A model generated the notes under the pieces. It was given only the letters and a program-made list of their open reading frames with translations, did no database searches and had not been told where the DNA came from. From an uncultured Chromatiales bacterium (GTDB lineage Bacteria; Pseudomonadota; Gammaproteobacteria; SZUA-140), in the NCBI GenBank assembly GCA_964581365.1, contig CAZOOF010000003.1:28042-92041 (forward strand): 64,000 bases of DNA, read 5' to 3'. Below, piece after piece: positions 32,322-51,318 of this stretch. Both the position numbers and the translations under genes were made by a program. Numbering within the stretch: the first letter of the stretch is position 1; each line of letters opens with the position of its first letter.

Positions 32322-33740
32322 TTACGGTGCATCTCTGAAGTGTACCGCCACGCCCGCCTCTTCCAGCAGAATCGTTTCAGTGATCCCGGTCAGCTCGGCG
32401 AGCTGCGCCGCCAGGGTTTCGTTGCGCTCATCCCTGGGGTCGAACAGCAGGTAATCGACATTGGCGATGTTTTGCAGCAGCGTTTCGTGGTCAGGGAAGG
32501 GCGGCGGCAGTGGCAGAGTGTGCCTGCGGGTTGCGAGCATGGTCTTGCCCGGCCATTGACTCATCGTCATGGTCGCCTCTTCCCGGCCTGCGTCTTCCAT
32601 CTCCACGCTGAACGCCAGCAGCAGCGCATCGACGGGCGGCAGCTGATTCTGTGAGATCGCATAGTGGTGTGCCTTGCCCACCTGCATGAAGATGATCGAG
32701 GCGATGAAGACCACGACGAAAACGAGCCCGCGCTGACCGGCGAATCCACCCAGTCCCATGCCGCGATTGAAGGCGATCAGGCGCGGGACCCCGAGATAGA
32801 GGGTCATGGCCATGGCCAGCAGAGCCCAGGCTCCGTCGGCGGCGGGCAGCCCGAAAATCAGCGCCAGCAGCAGCATGCGCGTCATCATGTCTTCCGCGGC
32901 CATGCGTCGCCCCGCGATTCCAGCTCCGAGGATCGCGATGGCGAACAGAATCGCCAGCAGCCAGGCGAGGGCGGTACCGGGAGCATCCCGCCCGAGAATC
33001 GCCTGGTACAGAGAGACGAACGGCTGATCCAGCCACTGGAGCGCCGGCCAGCCGAGGCGCAAAATCAGAATGAGCGCCACCGCTACCGCGACGCCGATGT
33101 ACACATGCCGCTGTTGACGGGCATCGAGCGGACGGCTGCGCCATTCCCAGAGGAGCGCCGCCGGATAGGCGAGGGCGGCGGGATGAATGCTGACGGCGAT
33201 CATGATCCACAGCAGCTGGGCAAAAAACCAGCCGCCGAGCGGGCGCTGCACGCTGCGGTATTTCCGGTCGATCCAGAGACCGACGCCGAAGGCGAGCAGC
33301 AGGTAGGGGCCTGCGCCGAGCGCATCGATCTCGAACAGGGTGGCGGGGGCGATCAGCAGCAGGCCGCTGGCGATGAGGGCGCTCTCGCTATCGAAGTTCC
33401 GCCGCGCCCAGCGGTAGAGCATGGTCACTGCCGCCGCCATGATCAGCAGGGCGTGGACCTTGGCGGCGAACATGCTGCCTGGCCAGTAGGCGCCCAGCGG
33501 CGCAAGCAGTATCGCGCGCAGATCCGGCAAGCCAAGCAGGACGACGGTACTGATGATGCGTTCGCCTACCGACCAGACGAGCAGGAGGGCTCGCGCACCA
33601 GCTTCGTCGACGCCGAACTCATCGACGCGCACGAGCCCCAGTCCGAGTATGGCGGCGCCCCAGGCCGCAAGCACCAGAACTCCCCAGTAGTCCTCTTTCG
33701 CCCTGGTCAGGACGTGCCTTCCACGATCGCGTAAATTCAT
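32322..33740 (-). CDS. Polytopic membrane protein resembling GT-C (ArnT/PMT-like) glycosyltransferases
   Basis: 472 aa, more than 10 hydrophobic segments, acidic DE pair after TM1, soluble C-terminal domain. Confidence 0.55.
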   Translation of the reverse strand: MNLRDRGRHVLTRAKEDYWGVLVLAAWGAAILGLGLVRVDEFGVDEAGARALLLVWSVGERIISTVVLLGLPDLRAILLAPLGAYWPGSMFAAKVHALLIMAAAVTMLYRWARRNFDSESALIASGLLLIAPATLFEIDALGAGPYLLLAFGVGLWIDRKYRSVQRPLGGWFFAQLLWIMIAVSIHPAALAYPAALLWEWRSRPLDARQQRHVYIGVAVAVALILILRLGWPALQWLDQPFVSLYQAILGRDAPGTALAWLLAILFAIAILGAGIAGRRMAAEDMMTRMLLLALIFGLPAADGAWALLAMAMTLYLGVPRLIAFNRGMGLGGFAGQRGLVFVVVFIASIIFMQVGKAHHYAISQNQLPPVDALLLAFSVEMEDAGREEATMTMSQWPGKTMLATRRHTLPLPPPFPDHETLLQNIANVDYLLFDPRDERNETLAAQLAELTGITETILLEEAGVAVHFRDAP

Positions 33741-34106: not shown

Positions 34107-34135
34107 TTGACGGCCTTTAATCACCTACGTATCAT
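34107..34135 (+). promoter_or_regulatory. Sigma70 promoter for cytochrome c4
   Basis: TTGACG(34107-34112)-17 nt-TATCAT(34130-34135). Confidence 0.65.
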
Positions 34136-34187: not shown

Positions 34188-34958
34188 ATGCGACGCTTAA
34201 CGACCCTGGCTTCGATCCTCACCGGTGCACTGCTCATCGCGGCGATGCCTCAGGCACATGCCGCCAAGTCGGCAGTGACTGCCAGCCTTTCGAATGGCGA
34301 AGCCATCTTCACCCAGGGCAAGGGCAATGCCCCCGCCTGCAGTTCCTGTCACGGTGCCGATGCCATGGGTATCGATGCCATGGAAACGCCCCGCCTGGCC
34401 GGGCAGGTCGCCGAGTTCCTGGTCAAGCAGCTCGAGGACTTCGCTACCGATCGCCGCATGGGTCTGGGCGCCGGCGTGGTAATGAACGTGTTCGCCAAGG
34501 AGCTGTCTGCCGAAGACCGGCGTGACGTCGCGGCGTACCTGTCGATGCAGGGTCGTGATCGCGCGACTTCCGCGACCGGTGCTTCCAATCTCGCAGAGCT
34601 GAAAGAGATGGGCATGGCCGTCGGTGAGCCGCATCTGGGACTGCGTCTGGTCAACTACGGCGCGCCGGAGCGGGACATTCCCGCCTGCCGTTCCTGCCAC
34701 GACTTCAACGGTCGCGGCGTGGAGCCGATCTACCCGATGCTCAGCGAGCAGAAGTACGTTTACCTGGTCAACCAGCTGAAGTACTGGCGTGATGGTTCGC
34801 GCAACAATGATCCGCGCGAGCAGATGCAGAAGGTTGCCCGCAACATGACGGACGAGGACATCATCAACGCGGCTGCATATCTGACCGGAGCGTCTCCGTA
34901 TCCGGCGGGCAGCATCCGCATCCCCGAGCGTCATGTGAGCTTCAAGATCGTCAAGTAA
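34188..34958 (+). CDS. Diheme cytochrome c4-type periplasmic protein
   Basis: Signal peptide, CSSCH and CRSCH, PRLAGQ...LVKQLEDF, Met ligand candidates VMNVF and QMQKV. Confidence 0.92.
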   Translation: MRRLTTLASILTGALLIAAMPQAHAAKSAVTASLSNGEAIFTQGKGNAPACSSCHGADAMGIDAMETPRLAGQVAEFLVKQLEDFATDRRMGLGAGVVMNVFAKELSAEDRRDVAAYLSMQGRDRATSATGASNLAELKEMGMAVGEPHLGLRLVNYGAPERDIPACRSCHDFNGRGVEPIYPMLSEQKYVYLVNQLKYWRDGSRNNDPREQMQKVARNMTDEDIINAAAYLTGASPYPAGSIRIPERHVSFKIVK

Positions 34959-35100: not shown

Positions 35101-35697
35101 ATGTCTGGACGACAGTCGCTCAAGCAGGGAGAGAAGATTCTTTTCGGCATCGCGATCGTGTTTATCGCCTTTGCCGTGATCGCTTACCTGGCTCTTGAAG
35201 CCTATCGCTTGAGTGTCGGAGGGCAGGTCTTCGAGGCCACCACGCACTTCACTCTGTCCGAAGAAGGGCATCGCGGTTCGGAAATCTTCCGTGCGAACCG
35301 CTGTACCTCATGTCATCGCGCGATGCGCAACGGCACCAATATGGGTCTTTCCCTCGACGGGATCGGTTCCCGCCGTACTCAGCAGTGGATCTACGATTTT
35401 CTCCGCGACCCTGAGGCCACTTACGGTGCGCCGACTTTCGATCATGGCTATCCGCCGAAGGAGGCTGCCTACGTTTCGACGCTTCCGCCGGACGATCTGC
35501 GCCTGATCGCTACCTTCCTGTCCGAATTGCGCTCGGATCAGGGTTCATCGTCCGCGCCGATGCCGCCGTCAGGTGATTCCGCTTTCATCGACAACATGCT
35601 CAGGCTGTTTGCTCCGGGCAGCTGGGACGAGAAGTACGGCGATGTCCGTCAACGCCAGCCGGCGCCGGATGAGGCCCGGGAGCCAGCCGAACAGTAG
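35101..35697 (+). CDS. Membrane-anchored monoheme cytochrome c (NorC/CcoO-like fold)
   Basis: N-terminal TM, CTSCH, LDGIGSRRTQQWIYDFLRDP. Confidence 0.85.
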   Translation: MSGRQSLKQGEKILFGIAIVFIAFAVIAYLALEAYRLSVGGQVFEATTHFTLSEEGHRGSEIFRANRCTSCHRAMRNGTNMGLSLDGIGSRRTQQWIYDFLRDPEATYGAPTFDHGYPPKEAAYVSTLPPDDLRLIATFLSELRSDQGSSSAPMPPSGDSAFIDNMLRLFAPGSWDEKYGDVRQRQPAPDEAREPAEQ

Positions 35698-35795
35698 TTT
35701 TTCCCTTTGTCTTTGACCGAAAGACCGTTCCCGATCGAAGCGTCCCCGCAGCCAGATCTGCCGCGCGCGCTTGAGACCGGATGGCAGGAGAGGAT

Positions 35796-36335
35796 ATGAG
35801 CGACCACAATGCGCCCTGGGCGAAAGATGTCGAGTACACCCGCTATACGGTGATGTTCGTTTATGCCTGCATCATCTACGCCATCATCGGATTCTCATGG
35901 GGAGCGCTGATGGGCGGGATTCAGGAGTTCAGGCACTTCGTCGATCATCGGATGCATGGTCAGTTGATCGTGCGCGCCCACACCCACGTCAATCTGCTGG
36001 GCTGGGTGGAAATGGCGATCTTCGGAGCGGTCTACTATTTCATTCCTCGCCTGGTGCGCAGGCCCATCCATAGCATGACCTTGGTGAAGGTTCACTTCTG
36101 GATGCATAACGTCGGACTGGTGGGCATGGTGGTCCTTTTCACCATCGCCGGCGTGATCGGCGGTATGGCGAGCGTGGAGATGAGCCCGGAAGAGGTCGAG
36201 CCGATGGTCAGTCCGCTGCTGGCCACCATGGGTATCTTCGGAACCCTCGTCCTGTTGGCCAACATCATCTGGGGCTATAATATTTTCCGCACCTGTGCAG
36301 GATGGTCGAAAGGCAAGGAGTGGCAGGAACGATGA
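35796..36335 (+). CDS. Stand-alone 4-TM heme-copper oxidase repeat protein (HCOH-type) no. 1
   Basis: RAHTHVNLLGW...YYFIPRLVRRPIHS...VHFW matches helices IX-XII of the CcoN in this window (VAHAHLALLGF...FHFW). Confidence 0.8.
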   Translation: MSDHNAPWAKDVEYTRYTVMFVYACIIYAIIGFSWGALMGGIQEFRHFVDHRMHGQLIVRAHTHVNLLGWVEMAIFGAVYYFIPRLVRRPIHSMTLVKVHFWMHNVGLVGMVVLFTIAGVIGGMASVEMSPEEVEPMVSPLLATMGIFGTLVLLANIIWGYNIFRTCAGWSKGKEWQER

Positions 36336-36844
36336 ACAGGCACTACCGGACGGCTGTTGCGCTTCTCTTCACCACACTGCTCCTCGCTGGTTGTGAGATG
36401 CAGGGCGGCGTCAACGTCGGTTCAATGGCGCCTTCGATTACCACCAAGACCCTCGCGGACGTTGGCGGGGACTTCAGCCTCATCACGACCTACCGCTATC
36501 CCGACGAGCGCATGTACCAGTACTCCCTGGACGATGCGCTGAAATCCGGCAAGACCATCGTGCTGGAGTTCGCGACCCCGGGGCATTGCACGGTCTGCGA
36601 CAAGCAACTGCAAATGCTCAAGGGGCTGATGGATAAGTACGAATCCGAAGTGCTGTTCCTGCATATGGATCAGTACCGCAATCCGGAAGCTTTCACCGCC
36701 TTCAAGGTCATGGGTGATCCCTGGACCTTCGTCATCGACGGAAACAGCGTAGTGCAGTTCAAGCGTGCCGGCAGGGTCCTGTACGATGAACTCGATGCCA
36801 CGCTGGTGCGGGTGCTCCGGCAGCAGCAGACCGGGATGAGCTAA
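36332..36844 (+). CDS. Thioredoxin-fold lipoprotein
   Basis: Lipobox LAGC, CTVC motif, DPWTFVID cis-Pro region. Confidence 0.75.
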   Translation: MNRHYRTAVALLFTTLLLAGCEMQGGVNVGSMAPSITTKTLADVGGDFSLITTYRYPDERMYQYSLDDALKSGKTIVLEFATPGHCTVCDKQLQMLKGLMDKYESEVLFLHMDQYRNPEAFTAFKVMGDPWTFVIDGNSVVQFKRAGRVLYDELDATLVRVLRQQQTGMS

Positions 36845-37303
36845 GTGGCCGCAGCGGTATCGTATCGCCTGTCCCAGGACAGGAAAGGCATGTGGTGGGA
36901 TCTTCTTCTGTACATCCCGACCGTAGTGTTTCTGTTCGCCACTGGCCTCAAGCTATGGTTCAGCAGCAGCTACCAGAACTGGTCTTATTTGCTGTTTTTC
37001 ATGGCGTTTTTCTTCCTGTTCGCGGGGGCGAGCAGGGTGCTGTCGGGACGGCTCATGCTGTTCGGCTCCTCGCCGGTAGCCATCTCCTGCGACCGCGAAC
37101 AGATCAGCCTCGAACTGCGCAACGGCAACCGTGTCGATCTCGTCAAGGATGTGCGCTTTTTCTCCGACTACGCCGGCAAGTCCTTCGGACTCACCGGCAT
37201 GGACCTGTCGGGACGGCGCCGTCAGTTCGTTTTTCATCGGGGCCAGTTTCCCGATGCCGAGGCCTACCGAAACCTGCTTGATCGCCTTGCGGTATTCAAG
37301 TGA
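36845..37303 (+). CDS. Hypothetical 2-TM protein with soluble C-terminal domain
   Basis: GTG directly follows the upstream stop; two hydrophobic segments. Confidence 0.7.
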   Translation: MAAAVSYRLSQDRKGMWWDLLLYIPTVVFLFATGLKLWFSSSYQNWSYLLFFMAFFFLFAGASRVLSGRLMLFGSSPVAISCDREQISLELRNGNRVDLVKDVRFFSDYAGKSFGLTGMDLSGRRRQFVFHRGQFPDAEAYRNLLDRLAVFK

Positions 37304-37523: not shown

Positions 37524-37883
37524 GAATTCCCGGCGCTTTGCAAACAGCCTTTTGAACAAGGCGAAAACGCTAACACAGACAACGGCGAAAATGCCAATGG
37601 ATCTGCTCTCAAACACTTGCAGACACAGGATGGGGTTGCTATCCTCTGCTGTGCGAAAATATCGGGCGCAGACTGTTATAAATGGCGTCCGCTCGAGCGA
37701 AACTCGGGTATATGGGGCTTGACGGGCCAACAGCCGTATGCAAGCATCCGTTCCCATATAAAAAACAGGGTTGTCCGGGCCGCAGCTCCCCGCTGCGGAC
37801 AGGCCGACCGGCAGCCAGCGCACGACACAACAACAACTATGGCGTGCGGTGATCGGATCTAGAGTCCAGCGGAGGGGTTGTTA

Positions 37884-38159
37884 ATGAATAAACTTGGCTT
37901 CAGCAAAACCTTCTGGGTAGCCCTCATCGGTGGCGGTGTCACTGGCATGGGTAACGGTAGCGTATTCGGCGCCGCGCTCATGTGTGCGCTGGGACGCGGC
38001 TACTTCGAGGACTGGGGTGGCATGGGTATGGATGCCTACAATGCCGTTACGTTCCAGGGATTCGTGAACTGGTGCATGATCATCTTCGGTGTGGCGTTCA
38101 CGATCATCGTCATGATCGCTCTGCGGCGTCACGGCGAGCTGGAAAAGGCAACGAACTGA
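37884..38159 (+). CDS. Gly-rich 2-TM protein, first gene of the oxidase operon
   Basis: RBS GGAGGGG; high-expression-type codons (ttc, atc, ggt, aac). Confidence 0.75.
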   Translation: MNKLGFSKTFWVALIGGGVTGMGNGSVFGAALMCALGRGYFEDWGGMGMDAYNAVTFQGFVNWCMIIFGVAFTIIVMIALRRHGELEKATN

Positions 38160-38212
38160 TCACAGCGTTCGCTTCTGCACCAACGTCATTCAGTCCGGGG
38201 AGGCACCACACA

Positions 38213-38308
38213 ATGTTGGCAACGTTTGCTACGATTGGCTGTATCCTGCTCGCGTTTTCGAGCATGTGGTTTGCTTGGTATCTTCTGATGCCGGGCGATC
38301 ATACCTGA
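38213..38308 (+). CDS. 31-aa single-TM microprotein MLATFATIGCILLAFSSMWFAWYLLMPGDHT
   Basis: RBS GGGGAGG 38197-38203; lies directly upstream of ccoN. Confidence 0.7.
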   Translation: MLATFATIGCILLAFSSMWFAWYLLMPGDHT

Positions 38309-38387
38309 GCATCGGTCCGCCGGCGCCGGCGAGCACGTAAATGCTGTCAGGGAACATGAAAATAGCGCTTTTAGGGGGGTAAGTCCG

Positions 38388-39794
38388 ATGTTCAAGTATC
38401 TGCTGGCCAAAAACGAGGAGATCCCGCGCGGTACAGCGGCGGTCTACTTCGGTGTTTCTTCCATCATCTGGTTCGTGATCGGGACCGGCCTCGGCTCCTT
38501 CAACGCCGCCAAGCTCGCGTTCCCCGACTTCGTCACCGGCTCGGAGCTGTTCTCCTTCGGTCACATGCGCCAGGTCCACGTGATGGCCGTCATCTTCGGC
38601 TGGATCTCGATGGCTTTCGCCATGGCCATGATGTACATCACGCCGGCACTGGGAAATACCAAGCTCTGGTCTGAGAAGCTGGGCGTCTGGAACTGCTTCA
38701 TCTGGAACTTCGGTCTTTCTCTCGGCCTGACCGTGCTGTGGGCCGGAATGAGCTCTGGCCGTGAGTACTCGGACTTCCCGTGGTTCATCGACCTGGTGAT
38801 TCTGTTCGGCATCGTTCTGCCGCTCGGCATCAACGTGTGGATGACCATCATCAAGCGCCGCACCCAGGGTATCTACACCACCAACTGGTTCTTTGCCGCC
38901 GGCTGCTTCATGCTGTTCATCGTGCTTCTGGTCGGTAACCTGCCGGAGTACTTCCAGCTCACGGGTCTGACCGAGGCCTATCTGACCTGGTGGTTCGCGC
39001 ACAACGTGCTTGGACTGTGGATCACCCCGATCGCTGCGGCCATCGCGTACTACACCGTGCCGAAGATCACCGGTAATCCGCTGTACTCGCACCGCATCGG
39101 CCACCTGCACTTCTGGTCCGTGGTGGTGTTCTACTCCACGCCCGCTGCGCATCACCTGATGTCGGCGCCGCTGCCGGAGTGGCTGAAGTCCTTCGCATCG
39201 GTGGAGGGCGTGCTCATTCTGGTGCCGGCCATTGCGTTCGTGTCCAACCTGCTGCTGACCATGACCGGCAAGTGGCGGTACTTCGTCGACAACGTCGAGA
39301 TCAAGTTCACGATTACCGGCGTGCTGATGGCGATCCCGCTGAACATGCAGGGCGGATTCCAGCAGACCCGTGCCATCAACTGGTACATCCATGGTACCGG
39401 CTGGATCGTGGCGCACGCACACCTGGCACTGCTCGGCTTCTCGACCTTCCTCGAGGCTGCCGCCGTGTACTATGGTCTGCAGACGATCCTGCGTCGCAAG
39501 CTCTACTCGCTGGCGCTGGCTAACTTCCACTTCTGGTTCCTGCTGATCGGTTTCACGATCTACTGGATCTCCATGACGATTGCGGGCCTGATCCAGGGTG
39601 CCGGCAAGATCTATGAAGTGCCCTACATCGACGTCGTGATCGCGGAGCATCCGTACATGATCGCCCGTTGGGTTGGCGGCACCATGGTGTTTACCGGAAA
39701 CCTTGTCTGGCTCTACAACATGTGGATGACTGCGCGTGAAGGCACTGTGATCCCCGCGGGCCGTCTGCCGCACGAGATCGCCTACGAGCGCTAG
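38388..39794 (+). CDS. ccoN: C-family (cbb3-type) heme-copper oxidase subunit I, divergent
   Basis: H64, WWFAH205N, Y249-x5-H255H256, H343-x-H345 and REY motifs; 12 TM. Confidence 0.92.
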   Translation: MFKYLLAKNEEIPRGTAAVYFGVSSIIWFVIGTGLGSFNAAKLAFPDFVTGSELFSFGHMRQVHVMAVIFGWISMAFAMAMMYITPALGNTKLWSEKLGVWNCFIWNFGLSLGLTVLWAGMSSGREYSDFPWFIDLVILFGIVLPLGINVWMTIIKRRTQGIYTTNWFFAAGCFMLFIVLLVGNLPEYFQLTGLTEAYLTWWFAHNVLGLWITPIAAAIAYYTVPKITGNPLYSHRIGHLHFWSVVVFYSTPAAHHLMSAPLPEWLKSFASVEGVLILVPAIAFVSNLLLTMTGKWRYFVDNVEIKFTITGVLMAIPLNMQGGFQQTRAINWYIHGTGWIVAHAHLALLGFSTFLEAAAVYYGLQTILRRKLYSLALANFHFWFLLIGFTIYWISMTIAGLIQGAGKIYEVPYIDVVIAEHPYMIARWVGGTMVFTGNLVWLYNMWMTAREGTVIPAGRLPHEIAYER

Positions 39795-39840
39795 GAGACA
39801 AGTCCGCAATTATAAAAGGTTATGAGGGGAGGAATCAGAC

Positions 39841-40791
39841 GTGGCATTCCGTGAATATAAAATAGGTGCGCGACTGTTCGGTGTTGCGCTCGGCGGATCG
39901 ATGATGATCACCATCTACATGCCGAGCCTGGACATCGTTCAGGTGGCGTCGACCGAGATGGGCCTGCGCAAGGGTCTCATGTACGGCCGAGTCGGCGGGT
40001 TCTCGGTCGAAGATCCGTTCCTGCAGGGGGCGGGCAAGCCGGTTACCGTGGTCCTGCGTAAGGATCCGCGGAATGGTGAGCCCATCGATGAGACGTACGC
40101 CTACGTCTACGAAGCGGGCATTCCGTTCACCAGTTCCATCCGTCACCCGCGCATCATGGGTGAAGGCGTGGAGGACCTGAGTCTGCAGCAGGGTCGTATC
40201 GGCGAAGCTGATCAGAATCGGGGCGCTGTGTTCCTGGTGGTCGAAGGCCGCTGGAACGGTGAGCCGACGCACTACATCGAGAACGCGACGGCTACCCGCA
40301 ATTGGACGCCCGAGCTCATCCGCAACGCGGTTAGCGATCAGGACATGCACTATGTCGGCTCCGGCAAGATCATGTTCGTGCGTGAAGGCTGCTGGTGGTG
40401 TCATACGCTCCTCCCGGAGCAGACGCAGGACTGGCAGGCGTTCGGCGCTCCGCCGCGGCTGGGTGACTTCAACAGTGAGTCGCCGACTGCGTTCGGATCC
40501 GACCGCAAGGCGCCCGATCTGCTGCATGTTGCCTCGCGCAACTCCTCACGCGAGTGGATGGTGATGCACTTCTTTAATCCGCGTCTCGTTCAGCCGCACT
40601 CGATCATGCCCCGCTACGACTATCTGTGGGGTGAGGTTGATGCGGATGGCAACCGGATCGATTACAAGAAGTGGCGTGCCGAGTACAGCGAGTACGCCTC
40701 CGGCAAGCGGATCTATCCGCCGGAAGTGCCGGAGCCTGCCGCTGATAGCGACGCCCGCTATCTGATCGACTTCGTGCTGAGCCTCAAATAA
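39841..40791 (+). CDS. ccoO: cbb3-type subunit II with N-terminal periplasmic insertion
   Basis: REGCWWCH, GSDRKAPDL, HFFNPRLVQPHSIMPRY. Confidence 0.88.
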   Translation: MAFREYKIGARLFGVALGGSMMITIYMPSLDIVQVASTEMGLRKGLMYGRVGGFSVEDPFLQGAGKPVTVVLRKDPRNGEPIDETYAYVYEAGIPFTSSIRHPRIMGEGVEDLSLQQGRIGEADQNRGAVFLVVEGRWNGEPTHYIENATATRNWTPELIRNAVSDQDMHYVGSGKIMFVREGCWWCHTLLPEQTQDWQAFGAPPRLGDFNSESPTAFGSDRKAPDLLHVASRNSSREWMVMHFFNPRLVQPHSIMPRYDYLWGEVDADGNRIDYKKWRAEYSEYASGKRIYPPEVPEPAADSDARYLIDFVLSLK

Positions 40792-40807
40792 GAGAGGGGG
40801 GTAAGAC

Positions 40808-41443
40808 ATGGCCTGGAAATTCGATAACCCGCTCTATAGTCTGACCGATGAGGAGCAGAACGAGAAGGCGAAGGAGCTGTGGGAAAAGGAAGCCCTCGGT
40901 GGAATCACCGAGGACAACAACCGCCTGCCGCGTCCGGTGGTCTGGTTGCTTGCGCTTACCATCGTGAGCGCGTTCCTGATGACGTTCCCTCTCTGGGGGC
41001 AGCGTCCGTCGGCGGCAATCTATGAGGACTACGTCGCGCTGATGGATTCGCCTGAGATTCAGGCGATTCAGCAGGAACAGGGCGATGACGCTGCCATGGC
41101 TGCGATGGTCAAGAAGGTGCGCGACCAGGGCTCGACCTACCAGGGGCTGCTGGATCGTCATCCGCTGTCCATGAATGAGCTGCGTCTCATTCGGGATGAC
41201 ATCATCGAGCTGCAGAACACCCGGGTCGACCTGGAAGAGTACTCGGTTGTGGGTGACCAGGTTCTGCTGGCGAACTTTGAAGGCAACTGGAAGCCGGATG
41301 GGACTCGCGAGCGCAAGCAGCCGTGGTGGGACAAGGGGTACACGATCGACCTGTTTTACGTGACGTACTTCTGTCTGGCGGTGTTGATCGCGGTGAAGCG
41401 TCTGCCGAACTATCGTTGGCAGCCGACGCATCACGGTCACTGA
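40808..41443 (+). CDS. Heme-less CcoP-like subunit
   Basis: GGITEDNNRLPRP resembles the CcoP N-terminal motif; 2 TM; no CxxCH. Confidence 0.7.
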   Translation: MAWKFDNPLYSLTDEEQNEKAKELWEKEALGGITEDNNRLPRPVVWLLALTIVSAFLMTFPLWGQRPSAAIYEDYVALMDSPEIQAIQQEQGDDAAMAAMVKKVRDQGSTYQGLLDRHPLSMNELRLIRDDIIELQNTRVDLEEYSVVGDQVLLANFEGNWKPDGTRERKQPWWDKGYTIDLFYVTYFCLAVLIAVKRLPNYRWQPTHHGH

Positions 41444-41461: not shown

Positions 41462-41593
41462 ATGATCGATGTCGACAATCCACCGCTCATAGTCCTGATC
41501 CCGATTATCATCGTGTTCGTGGCGCCGTTCATTTACAGCTTCTTCGTCGACAAGTACGACAAAGCTACGCCGCCGCTGCGAGACGACGAGTAA
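41462..41593 (+). CDS. 43-aa single-TM microprotein (CcoQ-like position) MIDVDNPPLIVLIPIIIVFVAPFIYSFFVDKYDKATPPLRDDE
   Basis: RBS AGGAGA 41450-41455; not in ORF track; followed by hairpin and terminator. Confidence 0.75.
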   Translation: MIDVDNPPLIVLIPIIIVFVAPFIYSFFVDKYDKATPPLRDDE

Positions 41594-41602
41594 TTGGCGA
41601 TA

Positions 41603-41632
41603 GTGATGCGGGATCTAACGATCCCGCATCAC
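41603..41632. repeat. Perfect 13-bp-stem inverted repeat
   Basis: GTGATGCGGGATC-taac-GATCCCGCATCAC. Confidence 0.85.
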
Positions 41633-41657
41633 ATTGAGCAGCAGGATGTGAAAGAAT

Positions 41658-41693
41658 AAACGATGCCGTTCGCGAGGGCGGCATCGTTTTTTT
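41658..41693 (+). terminator. Intrinsic terminator of the oxidase core operon
   Basis: AAACGATGCCG...CGGCATCGTTT followed by further Ts. Confidence 0.85.
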
Positions 41694-41729
41694 ACGCGCA
41701 GAGAGCGCTCATACAAGATCATTGCCGAT

Positions 41730-42059
41730 ATGACCCCGACAGATATGTATGAAGAGATTGTTTTTGCACTGATGCGGGCCAGCGAGCTGCTTTTGCCGGT
41801 ACTGCAGCAGAGCAGCGGGCCATCGAGCTACTGGAGCATCGAGGGCATGCAGGGCTATCGCTTCAGCGTCGGCATTTTCGTGTTCATGTTGGCCGGGGTG
41901 ATCGTGTTTGGCGCCATCGTTTACCACTTCTTCATGCACGCCGGACCACGCTCTGGTATCAAGCGGGGCGAGAAGATACTGTTCGCGTGGATCGTCGCCG
42001 GAATGTTTGTGGCGGTAGCTATCGGTGCAGTACAATTGTTGTATGGCCGACTTTTCTAG
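41730..42059 (+). CDS. Hypothetical 2-TM protein
   Basis: Two hydrophobic helices linked by HFFMH...KRGEKIL. Confidence 0.7.
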   Translation: MTPTDMYEEIVFALMRASELLLPVLQQSSGPSSYWSIEGMQGYRFSVGIFVFMLAGVIVFGAIVYHFFMHAGPRSGIKRGEKILFAWIVAGMFVAVAIGAVQLLYGRLF

Positions 42060-42071
42060 CAGGAGGCTGTC

Positions 42072-42353
42072 ATGAACTTTCTGCAATCGTTGCCGGATGG
42101 TTGGACCATCTACGTATGGCTGGTTGCTGGGGCGGCCATCATCTTTGCGGCGATTTACGGTTTGCGCTGGGCGCACCGTAATGAGCAGTTCGACGAGGAC
42201 ATCAAGTATCTGGTGTTCGACGAGAACGACAAGGAGAAGATGAGTCCCGAGGAGTACGCGAAGAGCCGCGAAGTGCTCGAGAAGCAGGTCAAGCGCCGGG
42301 AAGAAATCCGGCGGGAACGAGCGCAGCAAGCGGGCAGGCATGAGGACCGGTGA
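42072..42353 (+). CDS. ccoS: cbb3 oxidase maturation protein CcoS/FixS
   Basis: TM followed by WAHRNEQFDED...LVFDE; RBS AGGAGG. Confidence 0.75.
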   Translation: MNFLQSLPDGWTIYVWLVAGAAIIFAAIYGLRWAHRNEQFDEDIKYLVFDENDKEKMSPEEYAKSREVLEKQVKRREEIRRERAQQAGRHEDR

Positions 42354-42828
42354 AAAAGGGATCCTGCTTGTAATCGCAGTACTGGTAGTCGGCGGGGCGC
42401 TGTGGAGTTTCCAGCGTCAGAGCGAAGCCCCGCCGGAAGACCGCGAGATTCCATTCTACAGCACCGCGTCGGCTGAGCTGCGCCAGGCGGCCGGGGCGAT
42501 CTATCGGCGCGAGAACTGCAAGAGCTGCCACACTCTGTGGACAGTGCGTGATATCATGCAGTCGGTACCGGCGCCAGCGCTGGATGGTATCGGTTCTCTG
42601 CACGACGAACAGTGGTTTTTCGAGTATTTTTCCGCAGGCAACCCACAGCTGATACTGCCTTCACGTCTGAAGGCTGAGTATCAGATGCCATCCTACGCCC
42701 ACCTGCCGGATGACGAGCGGCGCACGCTGGCTGCCTACATGGCGAGCCTTAAAGTCAAAGACTGGTATCTCGACGAGGCCAGAAAGGCAAGGTGCCGCAA
42801 GCTGACAGGGGAGGAGGAATGCCCATGA
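42340..42828 (+). CDS. Membrane-anchored monoheme cytochrome c (NorC/CcoO-like)
   Basis: TM, CKSCH, APALDGIGS...W, MPSY Met ligand. Confidence 0.87.
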   Translation: MRTGEKGILLVIAVLVVGGALWSFQRQSEAPPEDREIPFYSTASAELRQAAGAIYRRENCKSCHTLWTVRDIMQSVPAPALDGIGSLHDEQWFFEYFSAGNPQLILPSRLKAEYQMPSYAHLPDDERRTLAAYMASLKVKDWYLDEARKARCRKLTGEEECP

Positions 42829-43298
42829 GTCCGCAGACCAGACGCAACATCCTGGGAACCATTGCCGTACTTGCCGGCTGTGCCGTGGTCTACGTTGGCG
42901 ACTGGCTGGTCGGCGTGGATCTGGAGTTGTGGTGGGGACTGGCCACCTTTACTCCGATCTGGATGGTCGCAATGTTTGTAGTGCCGCTGATCTCCGGTCT
43001 GGTGTGCGCGATGATCTTCGGTCTGGGCGGAAAGTGGCTGTGTTATTTCCCTCCGCTTATCGTCCGTACCATCAATTACTTTGCCTACGTCTATGAGTTC
43101 AAGGTGCCGCCGCCTGGCGCCGAGCTGCTGTTCTTTCCCTACTGGATCATGTTCGTCATCTTGGTCGTGGAAGCGGCGGCGTTCGGGGGCGTGTTTGGAG
43201 AGATCGTCGTCAAGAAGACGTATGGTCGTCTGCCGCGGGAAATGGTGTACCGCAAGGCAGGTGATCAGTCGGCCGGTTCCGGAGGTCAGGGTGGATGA
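42825..43298 (+). CDS. Hypothetical 4-TM protein (start 42819 or 42825)
   Basis: Hydrophobic; overlapping stop/start junctions with both neighbours. Confidence 0.7.
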   Translation: MSPQTRRNILGTIAVLAGCAVVYVGDWLVGVDLELWWGLATFTPIWMVAMFVVPLISGLVCAMIFGLGGKWLCYFPPLIVRTINYFAYVYEFKVPPPGAELLFFPYWIMFVILVVEAAAFGGVFGEIVVKKTYGRLPREMVYRKAGDQSAGSGGQGG

Positions 43299-44356
43299 CC
43301 TCGACTCGTGCCTTGCCGCGTATAGATGAGGCCATCCGGCGGCGCCGCAAGCGCTACCTGACGGCGACGATTATCACCTGTATTGCTCTTGCCATGGTCG
43401 GTGGGAGCCTGCACATCGTGCAGCTCGGAGCCAAGCGCATGGAGGAGATGCGGGGCAAGGCGAGCTACGATGTCAGTGAGATGCGCTCGCGGATTCGGGC
43501 TGCTGGCGAGGAACTTCATCGTCACCGCCTCCACGAGGAAAGACAGACATTCGTCGAGTCCTATTCGGTGGAGGAGGCCGAGGCACTGCTCACGCCGGAG
43601 CAGTGGGCCGAGCTGGAGACGATGGTGACGATTCCCGCTGGGCCCTTCATCATCGGTACTAACCGGCCACGCAGCGCCGTGCAGGATCAGCCTGAACACC
43701 GGATAAATCTCCCTGCCTTCCGCATCGACACGTATCCGGTAACGAATGCGCAGTATGCCCGCTTTGTCGCGGCCACCGGGCATCGCCCGCCGCTGAACTG
43801 GGATCAGGGCCGGATTCGCCCGGGTACCGAGCTGCATCCGGTCACCATGGTTTCCTGGTATGACGCTAACGCGTATGCCAGCTGGGCCGGGAAGCGTCTG
43901 CCGACGGAAGCTGAGTGGGAAAAGGCCGCGCGAGGACCGGATGGCAAGCGCTGGCCATGGGGTGATCTCATGGATGCATCGCGCCTCAATACCTATTACA
44001 ACGTGGGCCGGACCACCGAGGTGACGCGTTACGTCTCCGGCGCCAGCGAGTACGGTGTCATGGACCTTGCCGGCAACGTCAGTGAGTGGACGAATGACAA
44101 CTTTCGCCCCTATCCCGGCAGCGATGCGCCGCCGGAGGTGTTCGAGGCGAAGATTGCGGTGGCCACAACGCCGCTGGATGAGGCAATGCAAGTTGTGGAT
44201 TTGGTCCCGGTGGACGGCAGCTACAAGGTGCTGCGCGGGGGTTCGTGGAAGAGCGACCCGTTCTCGACCGCTGCCTACCATCGGAATTATTCATGGCCGC
44301 ACTACGCTTCCGACTTCTTCGGGTTCCGGACGGCGGCAGATATCGTTACGGAATGA
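43295..44356 (+). CDS. Membrane-anchored FGE-sulfatase (NirV/pFGE-like) domain protein
   Basis: YPVTNAQY, RLPTEAEWEKAARG, DLAGNVSEW, RGGSW, GFR. Confidence 0.9.
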   Translation: MTSTRALPRIDEAIRRRRKRYLTATIITCIALAMVGGSLHIVQLGAKRMEEMRGKASYDVSEMRSRIRAAGEELHRHRLHEERQTFVESYSVEEAEALLTPEQWAELETMVTIPAGPFIIGTNRPRSAVQDQPEHRINLPAFRIDTYPVTNAQYARFVAATGHRPPLNWDQGRIRPGTELHPVTMVSWYDANAYASWAGKRLPTEAEWEKAARGPDGKRWPWGDLMDASRLNTYYNVGRTTEVTRYVSGASEYGVMDLAGNVSEWTNDNFRPYPGSDAPPEVFEAKIAVATTPLDEAMQVVDLVPVDGSYKVLRGGSWKSDPFSTAAYHRNYSWPHYASDFFGFRTAADIVTE

Positions 44357-45063: not shown

Positions 45064-47688
45064 ATGAGCCGCCGTTTCCTTTATCTGCTTTACGCCTGTT
45101 CGGGAGCGACCAGCCTCGCCTTCGAGGTGTTGTGGGCGCGCATGCTTTCCCTGCAGTTCGGCGTCAGTATCTTCGGTGTCGTGGTGACCATCGCCGCCTT
45201 CATGGCCGGTCTGGGCCTCGGCTCGCTGTTCGGTCTGCGGCTGGGGCGGACCAGCCGCAGACCTCTGGTCGCTTTTGCCTGTCTGGAGGGGGGCATTGCC
45301 ATCTATGCGCTGGCATTGCCGTCGCTGCTGTCGGGTGCCGAATCTTTCCTGTTGCAAGTGGCTGCCGGGGCGCCACTACAGACCTGGTATCTGTTTCAGT
45401 CCGTCGCGCTGCTGGCGCTGATTCTGCTGCCGGCTGTGGCGATGGGCGCGGGCTTCCCCCTGGTGCTCAAGGCGCTCGGCGCGCGCCCGCATGTCCTCGG
45501 CACCCTGTATGGTGTCAACGCATTCGGTGCCGCTCTGGGCGCTTTGCTGCCCCTGTGGCTGCTGCCCCGGTTTGGTTGGATGGCGGCAGTCGAAGCGGTA
45601 GCTGTGCTCGGTCTGCTGGTGGGTACATTCGCTGGCGCGCTCGCCTGGCGCGGCGAGTTTCGTGTGATTCCCGAACCGGGGATGAGGGCGGTCGATCGGC
45701 AGCGGCCAGCTCTGGTCTCACTGGTGGCCTACGCGGTCATTGGCGCCGCTGCCATCATGCTCGAGGTGGCCTGGACCCGCCTGTACGGGATGGTTCTGCT
45801 GCGCACCGAGTATGTGATGGCGGTGATTCTCGCCGTCTATCTCCTCGGTATCGGCGGCGGCAGTCTGCTTGCGCGCTGGCTGCGAGATTCGCGCTGGCTG
45901 GCCGTGTTCCCTCTGGCGGCCGCATTGCTGGCTTTACCCAGCCTGTGGCTCTTGCCGGCGATCTCGACCTGGTCGCAGGGTCAGGATTTCGGTTCTCTAT
46001 GGACGGCGCTGCTGGCTGAAGGGCTGGTGTTGGCGGCAGTGACTTTGCCTGTGACACTGCTGCTTGGCGCCTGGCTGCCGCTGCTCGCCCGGCGCTACGG
46101 CGACGAGGGATCATTCGGCCCGCTGTTCTACGGCGTGAACTCGGTCGGTTCGGCGCTGGGGGGCCTGCTCGCCGGTTTCGTGTTGATTCCATTGCTCGGG
46201 ACACCGGCAACCCTGGTGGCGGCGGCGCTCGCGCTTTTCGTTGCCGGTTGCGTCTGGGCTCCGTCCCCTCGTATCTGGCTGGCCTTCCCCCTGCTGCTCG
46301 TCGCGTTCTGGCCGGTGACGGATTTCCCTCCGGTTGCCAGGCTGGTGCCCGGGATGCACGCCGCCAGTGAGGACCTGTACCGCTATGAGGACGCGATGGC
46401 GATCACGCACGTGATCGAGCAGGCCGATGGGCAGCGTCTGCTGCTGAGCGATCTGCAGCGTATGGATGCCTCCAGCGAGCAGGCTGCGGTCGAACTGCAG
46501 AAGAACCAGGCGCGACTGCCGCTGATGCTGCATCCCCGTGCGGAATCGATCCTGTTTCTGGGGCTGGGGACGGGTATATCGGCTGCCGGCGCGCTCGAGT
46601 TTCCGGAGCTGCAGAAGCGCGCTGCGGTCGAGCTTTCGCTCGGTTCGATTCGCGCCGCGCGGGACTGGTTCGCTCCGGTCAATGAGGGGGTCATCGGACA
46701 GATGACCGTGGTGCGCGATGATGCCCGCCGTTATCTCATGGCGGATGAGGCTCAATGGGATGTCATCGTCGGTGACGTGTTTCATCCCGATCTGGTCGGA
46801 CGCAGCGCGCTGCTGTCCGTTCAGCAGTTCGAGCGTGCACGCTCACGTCTGGCACCGCAGGGCATTTTCGTGCAATGGCTGGCTCTGAACCAGTTCGACC
46901 ACGATTCCCTGCAGGTGGTGCTGCGCAGTTTTTCCCGGGTGTTCCCGGACGGCGTGATGTTCATGGACGGGTTTCGCATCGCGATGGTCGGCGGCCTGGG
47001 GGGAAGGGACCCGGTTCGCTGGATGGATTCGCTCCGCGCCCGCGACGAGGCTCTGGAGGCTGGCGAAGGAATCTGGACCTGGCTCGGGCGCTATTGGGGC
47101 ACGATTCCGCCGGATGACGGCGGACCGGTGCAGGATGAGTGGCGTCCCCATATCGAGTTCCGTCTGCCACAAGCGCGCTATGGCGGTGGCCTGGGACTCG
47201 ATCAGTTGCTCGATTGGTTGCTGCGCATCCGTCCTGAGTCGTCGCGCGCCGCCAGCGAGCTTGGCGTGACGCCCGCCGACCGCGAACGTTTCGAGGCCTG
47301 CTATACAGCCTCGGATCTGGCACTGAAAGCCTGGCTTGCGGGACTGAGGGGCGATGTGCCCCAGTCGCGGCGTCTGCTGCGCTTTGCCTGGGAAGCGAAC
47401 CCGGAGGATCGCTGGACAGGTTTCTCGCTGGCGGACAATATTCTTGCGGAACTGCAGGAATCACCGCGGGGGCTGGAGGACAGGCGTCGCGTACTGGAGG
47501 CCGTGCTTTCCATCAGGCCGGATCATGCCGATACCCTGCGCGCGCTGTGGCATCTCGACGCCGCCCTGGGGCGCCATGAGAGCGCTGCGGCCTGGTTCGA
47601 GCGCCTTGCCGAAGTCAGTCCGCTCGATCGCGAGGTGACGGCAGCGCGGGCTGCTGAGCACGGTGCGGCAACGCCGCCTCCAAAGTGA
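45064..47688 (+). CDS. Fused polytopic membrane domain plus spermidine-synthase-like SAM-binding domain
   Basis: Duplicated TM motifs (EVLWAR/EVAWTR; YGVNAFG/YGVNSVG), LFLGLGTGI, DARRYL, DVIVGDVFHP. Confidence 0.85.
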   Translation: MSRRFLYLLYACSGATSLAFEVLWARMLSLQFGVSIFGVVVTIAAFMAGLGLGSLFGLRLGRTSRRPLVAFACLEGGIAIYALALPSLLSGAESFLLQVAAGAPLQTWYLFQSVALLALILLPAVAMGAGFPLVLKALGARPHVLGTLYGVNAFGAALGALLPLWLLPRFGWMAAVEAVAVLGLLVGTFAGALAWRGEFRVIPEPGMRAVDRQRPALVSLVAYAVIGAAAIMLEVAWTRLYGMVLLRTEYVMAVILAVYLLGIGGGSLLARWLRDSRWLAVFPLAAALLALPSLWLLPAISTWSQGQDFGSLWTALLAEGLVLAAVTLPVTLLLGAWLPLLARRYGDEGSFGPLFYGVNSVGSALGGLLAGFVLIPLLGTPATLVAAALALFVAGCVWAPSPRIWLAFPLLLVAFWPVTDFPPVARLVPGMHAASEDLYRYEDAMAITHVIEQADGQRLLLSDLQRMDASSEQAAVELQKNQARLPLMLHPRAESILFLGLGTGISAAGALEFPELQKRAAVELSLGSIRAARDWFAPVNEGVIGQMTVVRDDARRYLMADEAQWDVIVGDVFHPDLVGRSALLSVQQFERARSRLAPQGIFVQWLALNQFDHDSLQVVLRSFSRVFPDGVMFMDGFRIAMVGGLGGRDPVRWMDSLRARDEALEAGEGIWTWLGRYWGTIPPDDGGPVQDEWRPHIEFRLPQARYGGGLGLDQLLDWLLRIRPESSRAASELGVTPADRERFEACYTASDLALKAWLAGLRGDVPQSRRLLRFAWEANPEDRWTGFSLADNILAELQESPRGLEDRRRVLEAVLSIRPDHADTLRALWHLDAALGRHESAAAWFERLAEVSPLDREVTAARAAEHGAATPPPK

Positions 47689-47720
47689 AAAATAGCCTGC
47701 TACATGCTAGAATTCGCAAT

Positions 47721-49049
47721 ATGTACCACTCCAAGGCACTGTCCAGTATCCCGGTCGTAGTGACCGCGGACGCAAGGGCCGGACGGAGATTGCGCGGAAG
47801 GCGTCGTGCGGTACAGCTCGGCACCCTCCTGCTCGCGATGCTCATTCCGCTGTCCGGTCTATTCCGTATCGATCCGGTGGCTGGCGCCTTCGTGGTGCTC
47901 GACCGTCAGATCTGGTTCGCCGATTTCTACATCGTCGTCGGCCTGTGGATGGCTGTTTCCAGTGTGCTGGTCCTGACCTATTCCTTGGTGGGAACCGCAT
48001 TCTGCGGCTGGTCCTGCCCGCAGAATACGCTGGCGGAGTGGGCCAACCGCATGACGACACGGCTGCTGGGGAAGCGTGCCCAAATCAATCTCGACGGGGA
48101 ACCGATCAAGGTTTCCGCGGGCAAGGACAAGGCGCTCAACTGGGTGATTCTCGGCAGCCTGTTCCTGCTCGCCGCGATGGTGATCGCCATCATTCCGATG
48201 CTGTATTTCTACACGCCCGAGCTGATCTGGCGCTTCATCACTTTCCAGCACGACGCCCGACTGGCTGATTCCCTGCACTGGATCTACATGATCTTCGTGC
48301 TGGTGATGTTCGTGAACATCGCCTTCGTGCGCCATTTCTGGTGCCGCTTCATGTGTGTGTACCGGGTCTGGCAGCATACCTTCAAGACGCGCGAAACGCT
48401 GCATATCGCCCATGACAAGAGTCAGCCCGACGAGTGCGCGCGCTGCAACTTCTGTGAAACCTCGTGTTTCATCGGCATCGATCCGCGTGAAACGGTGGTC
48501 TATGATGCCTGTATCAATTGCGGCGATTGCATTACCGCGTGCAGTTCGATTCGCGGTGCGCGCAAGACCGGCAACAGCCTGCTGCGATTCGAATTCGGGG
48601 AGCGCAGCGAAGAGGCGGACAGACAGCAGGATCGCGGCCGCCACAGTAACGTCGGTTCCGTGATGAAGCGCGCTCCCTGGGCGACGGCGCTGACCGTCTT
48701 TGGTCTGGTTCTGTTCGCCTGGGGCATCATCACCTATGATCCCGTCCATCACACGGTTTACCGTGCCGAGTCGGTGCAGGGCGGGCAGATCAACGATTAT
48801 CGCGTCAACGTCGCGAACAAGCTCTATCGGCCCATGAGTCTGACCGTGAGCTTGGAGGGCCTGCCGGACGGGGCGTATCGACTGGCGTCTGGCGTGGTTG
48901 ATTTTACCGAAGCCGGTCGGCAGGACGTCCGTCTGGAAATCGCCAATTCCCTGTCCCCCGGACTGTATCCGTTCCTGGTGCATGTCGATTCCGAGGACGG
49001 CAAGCGGCGCACGTTCCGCGTCCATCATTTGGTCCAGGAGGGTGCATGA
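47721..49049 (+). CDS. ccoG: CcoG/FixG-like 4Fe-4S membrane protein
   Basis: CGWSCPQ, WCRFMC, CARCNFCETSC, CINCGDCITAC; C-terminal Ig-like domain. Confidence 0.82.
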   Translation: MYHSKALSSIPVVVTADARAGRRLRGRRRAVQLGTLLLAMLIPLSGLFRIDPVAGAFVVLDRQIWFADFYIVVGLWMAVSSVLVLTYSLVGTAFCGWSCPQNTLAEWANRMTTRLLGKRAQINLDGEPIKVSAGKDKALNWVILGSLFLLAAMVIAIIPMLYFYTPELIWRFITFQHDARLADSLHWIYMIFVLVMFVNIAFVRHFWCRFMCVYRVWQHTFKTRETLHIAHDKSQPDECARCNFCETSCFIGIDPRETVVYDACINCGDCITACSSIRGARKTGNSLLRFEFGERSEEADRQQDRGRHSNVGSVMKRAPWATALTVFGLVLFAWGIITYDPVHHTVYRAESVQGGQINDYRVNVANKLYRPMSLTVSLEGLPDGAYRLASGVVDFTEAGRQDVRLEIANSLSPGLYPFLVHVDSEDGKRRTFRVHHLVQEGA

Positions 49050-51271: not shown

Positions 51272-51318
51272 ATCCTGCCCCGATGGCGCTGGCACAAGGC
51301 GCGCGGGTTGTCTGGCTG

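Follow-up and report, generated by a model that had tools for sequence, protein, structure and literature searches.

A free-standing repeat unit of heme-copper oxidase subunit I in a conserved gene module with a cytochrome c and a thioredoxin-fold lipoprotein

A repeat unit of subunit I encoded as a separate gene

The stretch of DNA analyzed here (the window) comprises 64,000 nucleotides (nt) of contig CAZOOF010000003.1 (positions 28,042 to 92,041, forward strand; assembly GCA_964581365.1) from an uncultured gammaproteobacterium of the Chromatiales; positions below are those of the window unless another locus is named. At 35796 to 36335 it encodes a small membrane protein, denoted mini-1, that is a free-standing single repeat unit of heme-copper oxidase (HCO) subunit I and more than a C-terminal fragment of such a subunit. 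Four consecutive genes form the core of the locus:

35101 to 35697 (+): monoC1, membrane-anchored monoheme cytochrome c; transmembrane (TM) anchor at amino acids (aa) 13-32, CTSCH at nt 35302-35316
35796 to 36335 (+): mini-1, free-standing single HCO subunit I repeat unit, 179 aa, 4 TM helices; key sites are H-T-H (in AHTH) at nt 35979-35987, an intramembrane Glu in WVEM at nt 36003-36014 and HFWMHN at nt 36093-36110
36332 to 36844 (+): thioredoxin-fold lipoprotein (Trx), lipobox LAGC, active-site-like HCTVC
36845 to 37303 (+): gene f, no family; hydrophobic N-terminus read by eye as 2 TM segments, soluble C-terminal part

The open reading frame (ORF) that encloses mini-1 spans 35781-36335 (+), and the probable start codon is ATG 35796, with AGGAG six bases ahead of it; the resulting 179 aa equal the length of the closest relative, P0002. 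The gap between monoC1 and mini-1 is about 98 nt, and the start codon of the Trx gene (ATG 36332) overlaps the mini-1 stop codon as ATGA. An earlier reading of the window, made from the letters alone (the original prediction), had described a one-third CcoN with the AHTH and downstream HFW motifs, directly preceded by a membrane-anchored cytochrome c and overlapping a CxxC lipoprotein gene; all of these features were found as described, the CxxC being the CTVC of Trx.

A structural model of mini-1 obtained with AlphaFold2 (AF2) consists of four long helices (predicted local distance difference test, pLDDT, 83; predicted TM-score, pTM, 0.80). Its best structural matches in Foldseek are CcoN chains (query-based TM-score, TMq, 0.76-0.78; root-mean-square deviation 1.8-1.9 Å over about 160 columns), followed by NorB, qNOR and ba3 subunit I. 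The Pfam family COX1 (PF00115) matches mini-1 with E = 8.3 × 10−16 (58.3 bits vs. a cut-off of 34.8), the match being confined to profile positions 310-430 of 436, and the ccoN equivalog profile TIGR00780 matches at positions 320-461 (54.9 bits, under the cut-off of 583.15). In a phmmer comparison with PDB sequences, mini-1 matched CcoN (3mk7_A) in three stretches, at residues 16-120, 210-246 and 344-410, and the best stretch in NorB (4xyd_A) was residues 7-146. The E-values of these matches are all far below chance, and the mini-1 family includes more than 780 members.

The repeat character of mini-1 becomes apparent when the units of subunit I are compared separately. A profile of mini-1 matches all three units of the neighboring CcoN, with the strongest match to unit 3 (residues 290-459, E = 4.5 × 10−14), followed by unit 1 (9-160, E = 7 × 10−6) and unit 2 (124-302, E = 3.8 × 10−5). 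Similarly, a hidden Markov model (HMM) built from diverse free-standing units matches canonical oxidases of about 470 aa three times each (62-138 bits for unit 3, 17-70 for unit 1 and 7-43 for unit 2). Thus, the threefold repeat of subunit I is visible at the sequence level. The pseudo-threefold symmetry of this subunit has been known since the first oxidase crystal structures.

Compared to CcoN (3mk7_A), mini-1 shares the fold of one four-helix unit and has kept two motifs, H-x-H (helix X) and HFW (helices VII and XI); AHTH of mini-1 aligns with HAH of the CcoN encoded in the window and with HVH of 3mk7. Unlike CcoN, which has 12 TM helices, mini-1 has 4, is encoded by a separate gene that is expressed far less, and lacks the CuB His-His pair, the cross-link Tyr and the helix-II partner in the same chain. 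The CuB/FeB ligand set is missing from mini-1, where TM3 carries HFWxHN in place of the His-His pair. A recent truncation of the neighboring ccoN was considered as the origin of mini-1 and rejected: the two proteins are only 28% identical, and the best non-family matches of mini-1, scored per domain, are free-standing proteins of about 155-165 aa (72-82 bits), whereas unit 3 of any CcoN, the neighbor included, scores lower (53-55 bits).

The original prediction had named loss of H-x-H in orthologues as grounds for abandoning it. This ground does not apply: both H-x-H and HFWxHN are invariant across 120 mini-1 orthologues, and H-x-H is kept in distant single-unit proteins as well, with the second His present in all of ten diverse proteins of this kind and the first in 90% of them. 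About 75 positions are invariant in the mini-1 orthologues. The (near-)invariant residues include H59, H67, H69, E77, H105, H109, C30, C172, R65, D55 and R57, together with four Met (M44, M78, M116 and M150), in a numbering that assumes 184 aa. In TM2, 21 of 28 positions are invariant, as are 19 of 20 on the periplasmic side (P-side), and there is no variable face; TM3 has a clear variable face (moment 0.72). Being conserved all round, TM2 cannot be lipid-exposed in a lone four-helix arc. In the alignments to CcoN, the counterparts of the first His of H-x-H are the helix-II ligand of heme b and the helix-X ligand of heme b3; those of the second His are the helix-VI ligand of CuB and the helix-X ligand of heme b. 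Hence, judging from the alignment and the known HCO structures, each interface in a C3 arrangement would receive one 'first' and one 'second' His.

Across the loci that contain the cluster, the identity of mini-1 (68-87%) is second only to that of CcoN (75-98%), compared to 56-91% for CcoO, 53-89% for Trx and 46-88% for monoC1. By the pattern of its sequence conservation, mini-1 is a functional HCO unit maintained by selection.

The module, its genomic neighbors and their expression

The cytochrome encoded upstream of mini-1 had originally been labeled 'NorC/CcoO-like', a label that did not withstand profile comparison. The only Pfam match of monoC1 is the generic Cytochrom_C, the Pfam scan gave no FixO (PF02433) match, and the hhalign probability against the CcoO of the same cluster is 1.9%. 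The best PDB match is subunit A of alternative complex III (ACIII; E = 7.6 × 10−4), compared to E = 0.42 for NorC (3o0r_C). In contrast, monoC1 is a paralogue of the second monoheme cytochrome of the cluster, monoC2 (42340-42828; hhalign 99.1%). With NorC and CcoO, monoC1 has only the architecture in common, a membrane anchor plus one heme c. As in NorC-NorB and CcoO-CcoN, the gene for an anchored monoheme cytochrome c lies directly upstream of a gene for an HCO-type membrane protein; unlike in these pairs, the cytochrome has no specific FixO or NorC homology, and the membrane partner, unlike NorB or CcoN, is one unit without the binuclear-center ligand set.

The Trx lipoprotein gives weak Pfam matches to AhpC-TSA, Thioredoxin and Redoxin, all with profile scores under the curated cut-offs. 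Its PDB matches are a thio-disulfide isomerase, DsbE and CcmG (E = 10−4 to 5 × 10−3 for thio-disulfide isomerase and DsbE). A 'Sco-like' assignment was rejected, given that the motif is CxxC (HCTVC) instead of the Sco CxxxC...H and that the SCO1/SenC profile (PF02630) does not match this protein.

Two genes precede the core, and an oxidase unit and further conserved genes follow it:

32322 to 33740 (−): gene a, 472-aa polytopic membrane protein, no Pfam family
34188 to 34958 (+): diheme c-type cytochrome; signal peptide, CSSCH and CRSCH, Pfam Cytochrom_C in 2 stretches
37878 to 41443 (+): oxidase unit, consisting of the next four genes
37878 to 38159 (+): g, 93 aa
38388 to 39794 (+): CcoN, identified by Pfam and NCBIfam, with all heme and CuB ligands and the helix-VII Tyr
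39841 to 40791 (+): CcoO-like protein with an N-terminal extension of about 170 aa without a family match
40808 to 41443 (+): FixP_N-only protein, 211 aa; the FixP N-terminal membrane segment alone, no heme motif, in place of CcoP
41462 to 44356 (+): further conserved genes, starting with k (43 aa) and l (109 aa) and including the next four
42072 to 42353 (+): CcoS/FixS-like protein
42340 to 42828 (+): monoC2, monoheme cytochrome c, paralogue of monoC1
42792 to 43298 (+): TM protein o
43295 to 44356 (+): membrane-anchored FGE-sulfatase-domain (FGE-like) protein, conserved in the cluster
47685 to 49049 (+): CcoG/FixG-like polyferredoxin; Pfam Fer4_5, Fer4_18, FixG_C
50232 to 50756 (−): gene w, 174 aa, Cys-rich, weak Pfam Bact_hydrolase match; 4-nt overlap with the upstream mini-2
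50753 to 51295 (−): mini-2, second free-standing HCO unit, 172-180 aa; H-A-H at nt 51089-51097, HSFW at nt 50975-50986

As the heme and CuB ligands are complete and the helix-VII Tyr is present, the CcoN of the window looks like the catalytic subunit of a real C-type oxidase. CcoG is known as a cupric reductase. Mini-2 matches Pfam COX1 (3.2 × 10−9) and is 27% identical to mini-1 (hhalign 98.6%); it belongs to a family of its own, with about 950 proteins. The mini-2/w pair recurs among housekeeping genes on another gammaproteobacterial contig, far from any oxidase cluster. Two other genes in this part of the window are mentioned for completeness: the 874-aa protein encoded at 45064-47688 (+), between the FGE-like gene and CcoG, is rich in TM segments and also has a spermine-synthase-like domain and a TPR repeat, and a 666-aa dynamin-family GTPase is encoded at 51604-53604 (−), just past mini-2.

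The diheme cytochrome gene, with a promoter-like site at 34107-34135, opens the upstream unit in Gammaproteobacteria and is missing from the zetaproteobacterial loci. By position and description, it is the counterpart of Tel_00405 of Candidatus (Ca.) Tenderia, denoted 'Cyc1' by the authors of that work, a correspondence that suggests an iron or electrode oxidation chain of the Cyc2/Cyc1 type. Nevertheless, nearly identical DNA occurs in metagenomes from manure, compost, leachate, biofilm and activated sludge.

As far as the contigs extend, 82 loci, all of them from metagenome bins, have the order monoC1, mini-1, Trx, f; they belong to Gammaproteobacteria (including Ca. Tenderia, Ectothiorhodospiraceae, Thiohalomonadales and Chromatiales bins) and Zetaproteobacteria (including Mariprofundaceae). 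Gene f follows the Trx gene in all 77 loci with room for it, as well as in the variant loci L105 and L106 (see below). A divergent ccoNO cluster comes next in every one of the 82 loci with enough downstream sequence, so that the full conserved order is monoC1, mini-1, Trx, f, g, CcoN, CcoO, FixP_N-only, k, l, CcoS-like, monoC2, o, FGE-like. Gene a is co-conserved with the cluster in Gammaproteobacteria.

Three loci depart from this arrangement. In L103, the order is monoC, CcoS-like, mini-2, FGE-like, mini-1, Trx, a 57-aa protein, CcoG and a gene of Cyc2-like appearance, with the FGE-like gene (1224-2117) located directly between the mini-2-like and mini-1-like genes. In L105, the diheme cytochrome c is followed by monoC1, mini-1, Trx, f, a and mini-2, with gene a inside the operon, on the same strand, between f and mini-2, and with CcoG adjoining; neither CcoN nor CcoO is encoded within 10 kb of the module. 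In L106, a betaproteobacterial bin, the module comes after ccoNO, not before it. These variants indicate that monoC1/mini-1/Trx/f is a real, portable module, to which mini-2, gene a and CcoG also belong, CcoG accompanying mini-1 and mini-2 in both L103 and L105. The two units share one operon in both loci, together with the FGE-like, Trx and CcoG genes in L103 and with CcoG in L105. The module is usually, but not always, located beside ccoNO. Two further observations were made in these loci. The products of L103 4987-5829 and L106 14169-15617, encoded beside the variant clusters and with an N-terminal CxxCH and a long tail, resemble by eye a Cyc2-type cytochrome-porin. Furthermore, in L106 (9218-10462), a single 414-aa ORF comprises the anchored cytochrome c and mini-1, joined by a linker rich in Gly, Ala, Pro and Arg. 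This apparent fusion was not used as evidence: the linker looks like an intergenic frame that is open at high GC content, an assembly error is another possible cause, and in a real fusion mini-1 would sit in the membrane the other way round.

Contigs from a compost metatranscriptome cover most of the cluster at 99% identity or higher. One RNA contig spans 37696-41470, from g to the FixP_N gene, at depth 40, and another covers the diheme cytochrome at depth 35, whereas the depth over mini-1 and Trx is only 0-10; contig depth is a poor measure that indicates the presence of transcripts, not their levels. The break between the RNA contigs agrees with the 575-nt gap between f and g. Expression values are available for Ca. 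Tenderia electrophaga grown on a cathode (Tables S1 and S3 of PMC5371394), with the counterparts assigned here by gene order and description. On the length-adjusted log2 scale, mini-1 is at 9.64 and mini-2 at 9.30, monoC1 at 10.1 and Trx at 10.6, compared to 13.25 for CcoN, 12.9 for CcoO and 12.8 for the diheme cytochrome; the latter ('Cyc1') is described as highly expressed, with a log counts per million (logCPM) of 12.4. Thus, mini-1 and mini-2 are expressed at similar levels, and the mRNA of mini-1 is about 12-fold under that of CcoN, which speaks against stoichiometric subunits of the oxidase. The locus is not a self-contained 'mini-oxidase operon', mini-1 being located nearly always within a large ccoNO cluster; mini-1 also lacks a CuB/FeB ligand set.

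Free-standing and three-unit relatives

Outside its own family, mini-1 resembles free-standing single-unit proteins, a group that overlaps the Pfam family DUF2871 (PF11070), which have about 150-190 aa and 4 TM helices, with H-x-H and then LLGW at the start of TM2; the YY..P and YS..L..FW motifs are also shared by mini-1 and the free-standing single-unit proteins. The score of mini-1 on the DUF2871 profile itself is 21.3 bits, under the cut-off of 27.4. The genomic contexts of these proteins differ from that of mini-1: single units of Nitrospirota are encoded beside genes for cNMP-binding-domain proteins, and the mini-2 relatives mentioned above beside housekeeping genes. In the Nitrospirota loci (L087-L098, including Ca. 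Magnetominusculus), single-unit genes of 128-142 aa are regularly followed by a gene of about 220 aa on the opposite strand; a Pfam cNMP-binding domain in one member of this group, in L085, suggests that these could be Crp/Fnr-type regulators.

Proteins of about 390-430 aa (P0132, P0140, P0141, P0143, P0159 and P0233) consist of three tandem units, each with H-x-H and LLGW, and from their sequences appear to be nearly symmetric 12-helix relatives of subunit I. In two of three cases, the three-unit gene is followed by a gene for a true SCO1/SenC lipoprotein (Pfam 2.7 × 10−30):

L083, 5965-7254: three-unit gene, next gene SCO1/SenC lipoprotein
L084, 6010-7248: three-unit gene, next gene SCO1/SenC lipoprotein

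Thus, as with mini-1, a gene for a thioredoxin-fold lipoprotein comes next; unlike in the mini-1 module, the units are fused in one chain, the lipoprotein is a true Sco (CxxxC), and there is no adjoining cytochrome c gene.

In the comparison with the units of canonical oxidases, mini-1 scores best against unit 3, the sole unit that kept both His, and other single-unit-like sequences score best against unit 1. Mini-1 may show oxidases as they were before their core tripled, or it may be a secondary split-off. In its full form, this idea would hold that mini-1, alone or with mini-2, forms a threefold-symmetric 12-helix core with three bis-His interface hemes, a living unfused form of the architecture of HCO and NO reductases prior to the triplication, within a widespread family that includes the fused proteins with three H-x-H motifs; we consider this possible, albeit doubtful.

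The gene itself has been listed previously. By gene order, description and size, ALP51724.1 (Tel_00415) of Ca. Tenderia electrophaga is the same gene in the same cluster, in the order diheme cytochrome c, monoheme cytochrome c, truncated CcoN, thioredoxin, then CcoN, CcoO, CcoG and a second truncated CcoN. A preprint (bioRxiv 10.1101/2022.05.06.490989, Fig. 2B) draws the cluster with 'truncated CcoN', 'thioredoxin', CcoN, CcoO, CcoG and a second 'truncated CcoN', and its authors refer to 'a sort of alternative complex IV'; in PMC5371394, the pair of the cytochrome and mini-1 is labeled 'Complex IV (1)'. These papers list the gene without an analysis of the repeat unit, ligands, oligomer or relatives. 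Among the papers searched, none was found on single-unit HCO homologues, three-unit proteins, the triplication idea or the function of DUF2871; a search for the phrase 'truncated CcoN' returned the Tenderiales preprint only, and the cluster is not described in two papers on the genomics of freshwater iron oxidizers (PMC3770913, PMC4643136). The gene is already known from such lists, but mini-1 appears not to have been recognized as a free-standing repeat unit to which symmetric three-unit proteins are related.

The origin of HCO and NO reductases is a long-standing question, and three results open the triplication idea to experiment: a single-unit profile detects all three oxidase repeats, free-standing units and symmetric three-unit fusions with conserved H-x-H are widespread, and strong selection acts on one of these units next to a real oxidase. 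The cluster includes the Cyc1 and ccoNO genes, which rank with the highly expressed genes of an autotroph grown on an electrode, and marine iron oxidizers share the cluster; the role of the module bears on how iron and electrode oxidizers build or protect their terminal oxidase.

Possible functions of the module

Our preferred reading, to which we assign a probability of about 40%, is that mini-1 assembles into a trimer-like oligomer, holds cofactors where the subunits meet and passes electrons to or from the cytochrome, the module being a low-abundance redox or maturation accessory of the ccoNO oxidase. We infer each component of this reading, i.e. the oligomeric state, heme binding, electron transfer with the cytochrome and the maturation role. 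Three units would assemble, either as a mini-1 homotrimer or as a mixed trimer with mini-2, such that H-x-H on the buried TM2 would face two neighboring interfaces. A cofactor would sit at each of the interfaces, in the simplest case a bis-His b-type heme, comparable to the arrangement of helices II and X around heme b in CcoN. MonoC1 would bind at the periplasmic face, where electrons would pass between it and the oligomer, and the translationally coupled Trx lipoprotein would act on the same face. The module as a whole (cytochrome c, mini-1, Trx, f, a, mini-2 and CcoG) would then be a low-abundance accessory of the divergent ccoNO oxidase in Cyc2/Cyc1-type iron and electrode oxidizers, most likely serving the redox-dependent copper and heme maturation or upkeep of that oxidase, as opposed to being a terminal oxidase itself. 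An oligomer is suggested by the three-unit relatives, which carry H-x-H three times, and by the invariance of the P-side of TM2 on all faces; an accessory role is somewhat likelier than that of an independent reductase because of the assembly-type company, the lack of CuB/FeB ligands and the low expression.

Several observations weigh against this reading. The level of mRNA is only a rough guide to stoichiometry, and the single-sequence AF2 model of the three-unit protein P0132 was unusable (pLDDT 43). The invariant His, Met, Cys and Glu would be as suitable for copper as for heme. The presence of a cytochrome partner and of a possible proton path (the Glu in TM2 and HxxxH in TM3) is more in keeping with a catalytic enzyme than with a chaperone. 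In L105, no ccoNO is found near the module, which therefore may work without that oxidase, and the mini-2 relatives among housekeeping genes, together with the varied contexts of single units, imply that the function of the family need not concern cbb3 oxidases. A heme or copper chaperone, which the original prediction had offered as an alternative, fits the genomic company (CcoG, CcoS-like and FGE-like proteins, and Sco beside the three-unit relatives) at least as well.

Among the alternatives, the module could be an independent small enzyme, in which a trimer of single units and monoC1 would make up a NorBC/CcoNO-like reductase whose substrate, at a heme site without CuB, would be O2, NO or a different small oxidant. 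The cytochrome c gene always adjoins mini-1, in the architecture of NorC-NorB and CcoO-CcoN, H-x-H is aligned with heme ligands, and the conserved E77, H105 and H109 could make a proton path; the 'Complex IV (1)' label of the Tenderia authors, the L105 locus and the possible Crp/Fnr-type regulators adjoining the Nitrospirota single-unit genes point in the same direction. However, TM3 has no His-His pair and there is no third or fourth CuB/FeB ligand, expression is far under that of the true oxidase, the cytochrome has no specific NorC/CcoO homology, and the neighbors are mostly of the assembly type (CcoG, CcoS-like, Trx), so we regard an independent enzyme as unlikely.

Distinctly unlikely, in our assessment, is a copper conduit, in which a path lined by His and Met through the oligomer would pass Cu(I) across or along the membrane to a Trx/Sco-like lipoprotein for insertion into the CuB site, CcoG supplying the reduced copper. 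This scheme would account for the invariance of H59, H67, H69, H105, H109, M44, M78, M116, M150, C30 and C172, the coupling of mini-1 to a thioredoxin-fold lipoprotein, the SCO1/SenC gene next to two of three three-unit relatives, and the co-travel of mini-1 with CcoG and the FGE-like protein. Nevertheless, the lipoprotein carries CxxC where Sco proteins have CxxxC...H, and it gives no SCO1 match; the Cys and Met positions are not kept in mini-2 or in distant units, in which H-x-H is kept; and the adjoining cytochrome c is left without a role.

It is very unlikely that mini-1 is a stoichiometric extra subunit of the ccoNO oxidase, packing on CcoN in place of the missing CcoP/CcoQ contacts. Such a role would be compatible with the presence of mini-1 near ccoNO in every locus with enough downstream sequence and with the heme-less FixP_N-only protein that stands in for CcoP. 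However, mini-1 apparently belongs to a separate transcription unit, being separated from the oxidase genes by the 575-nt gap, with the RNA contig of the latter beginning at 37696; furthermore, the mRNA is about 12-fold under that of CcoN, the order is rearranged in L106, and no ccoNO is found near the module in L105.

Finally, the database name 'cbb3-type cytochrome c oxidase subunit I' and the preprint label 'truncated CcoN' could be taken to imply a decaying, functionless remnant of a duplicated ccoN, a reading that sequence conservation refutes for practical purposes: the ORF is intact and of conserved length, with 68-87% identity across three proteobacterial classes and about 75 invariant positions, transcripts of the Tenderia counterpart are known and short RNA contigs from compost map to mini-1, and free-standing units are closer to mini-1 than the neighboring CcoN, to which it is 28% identical.

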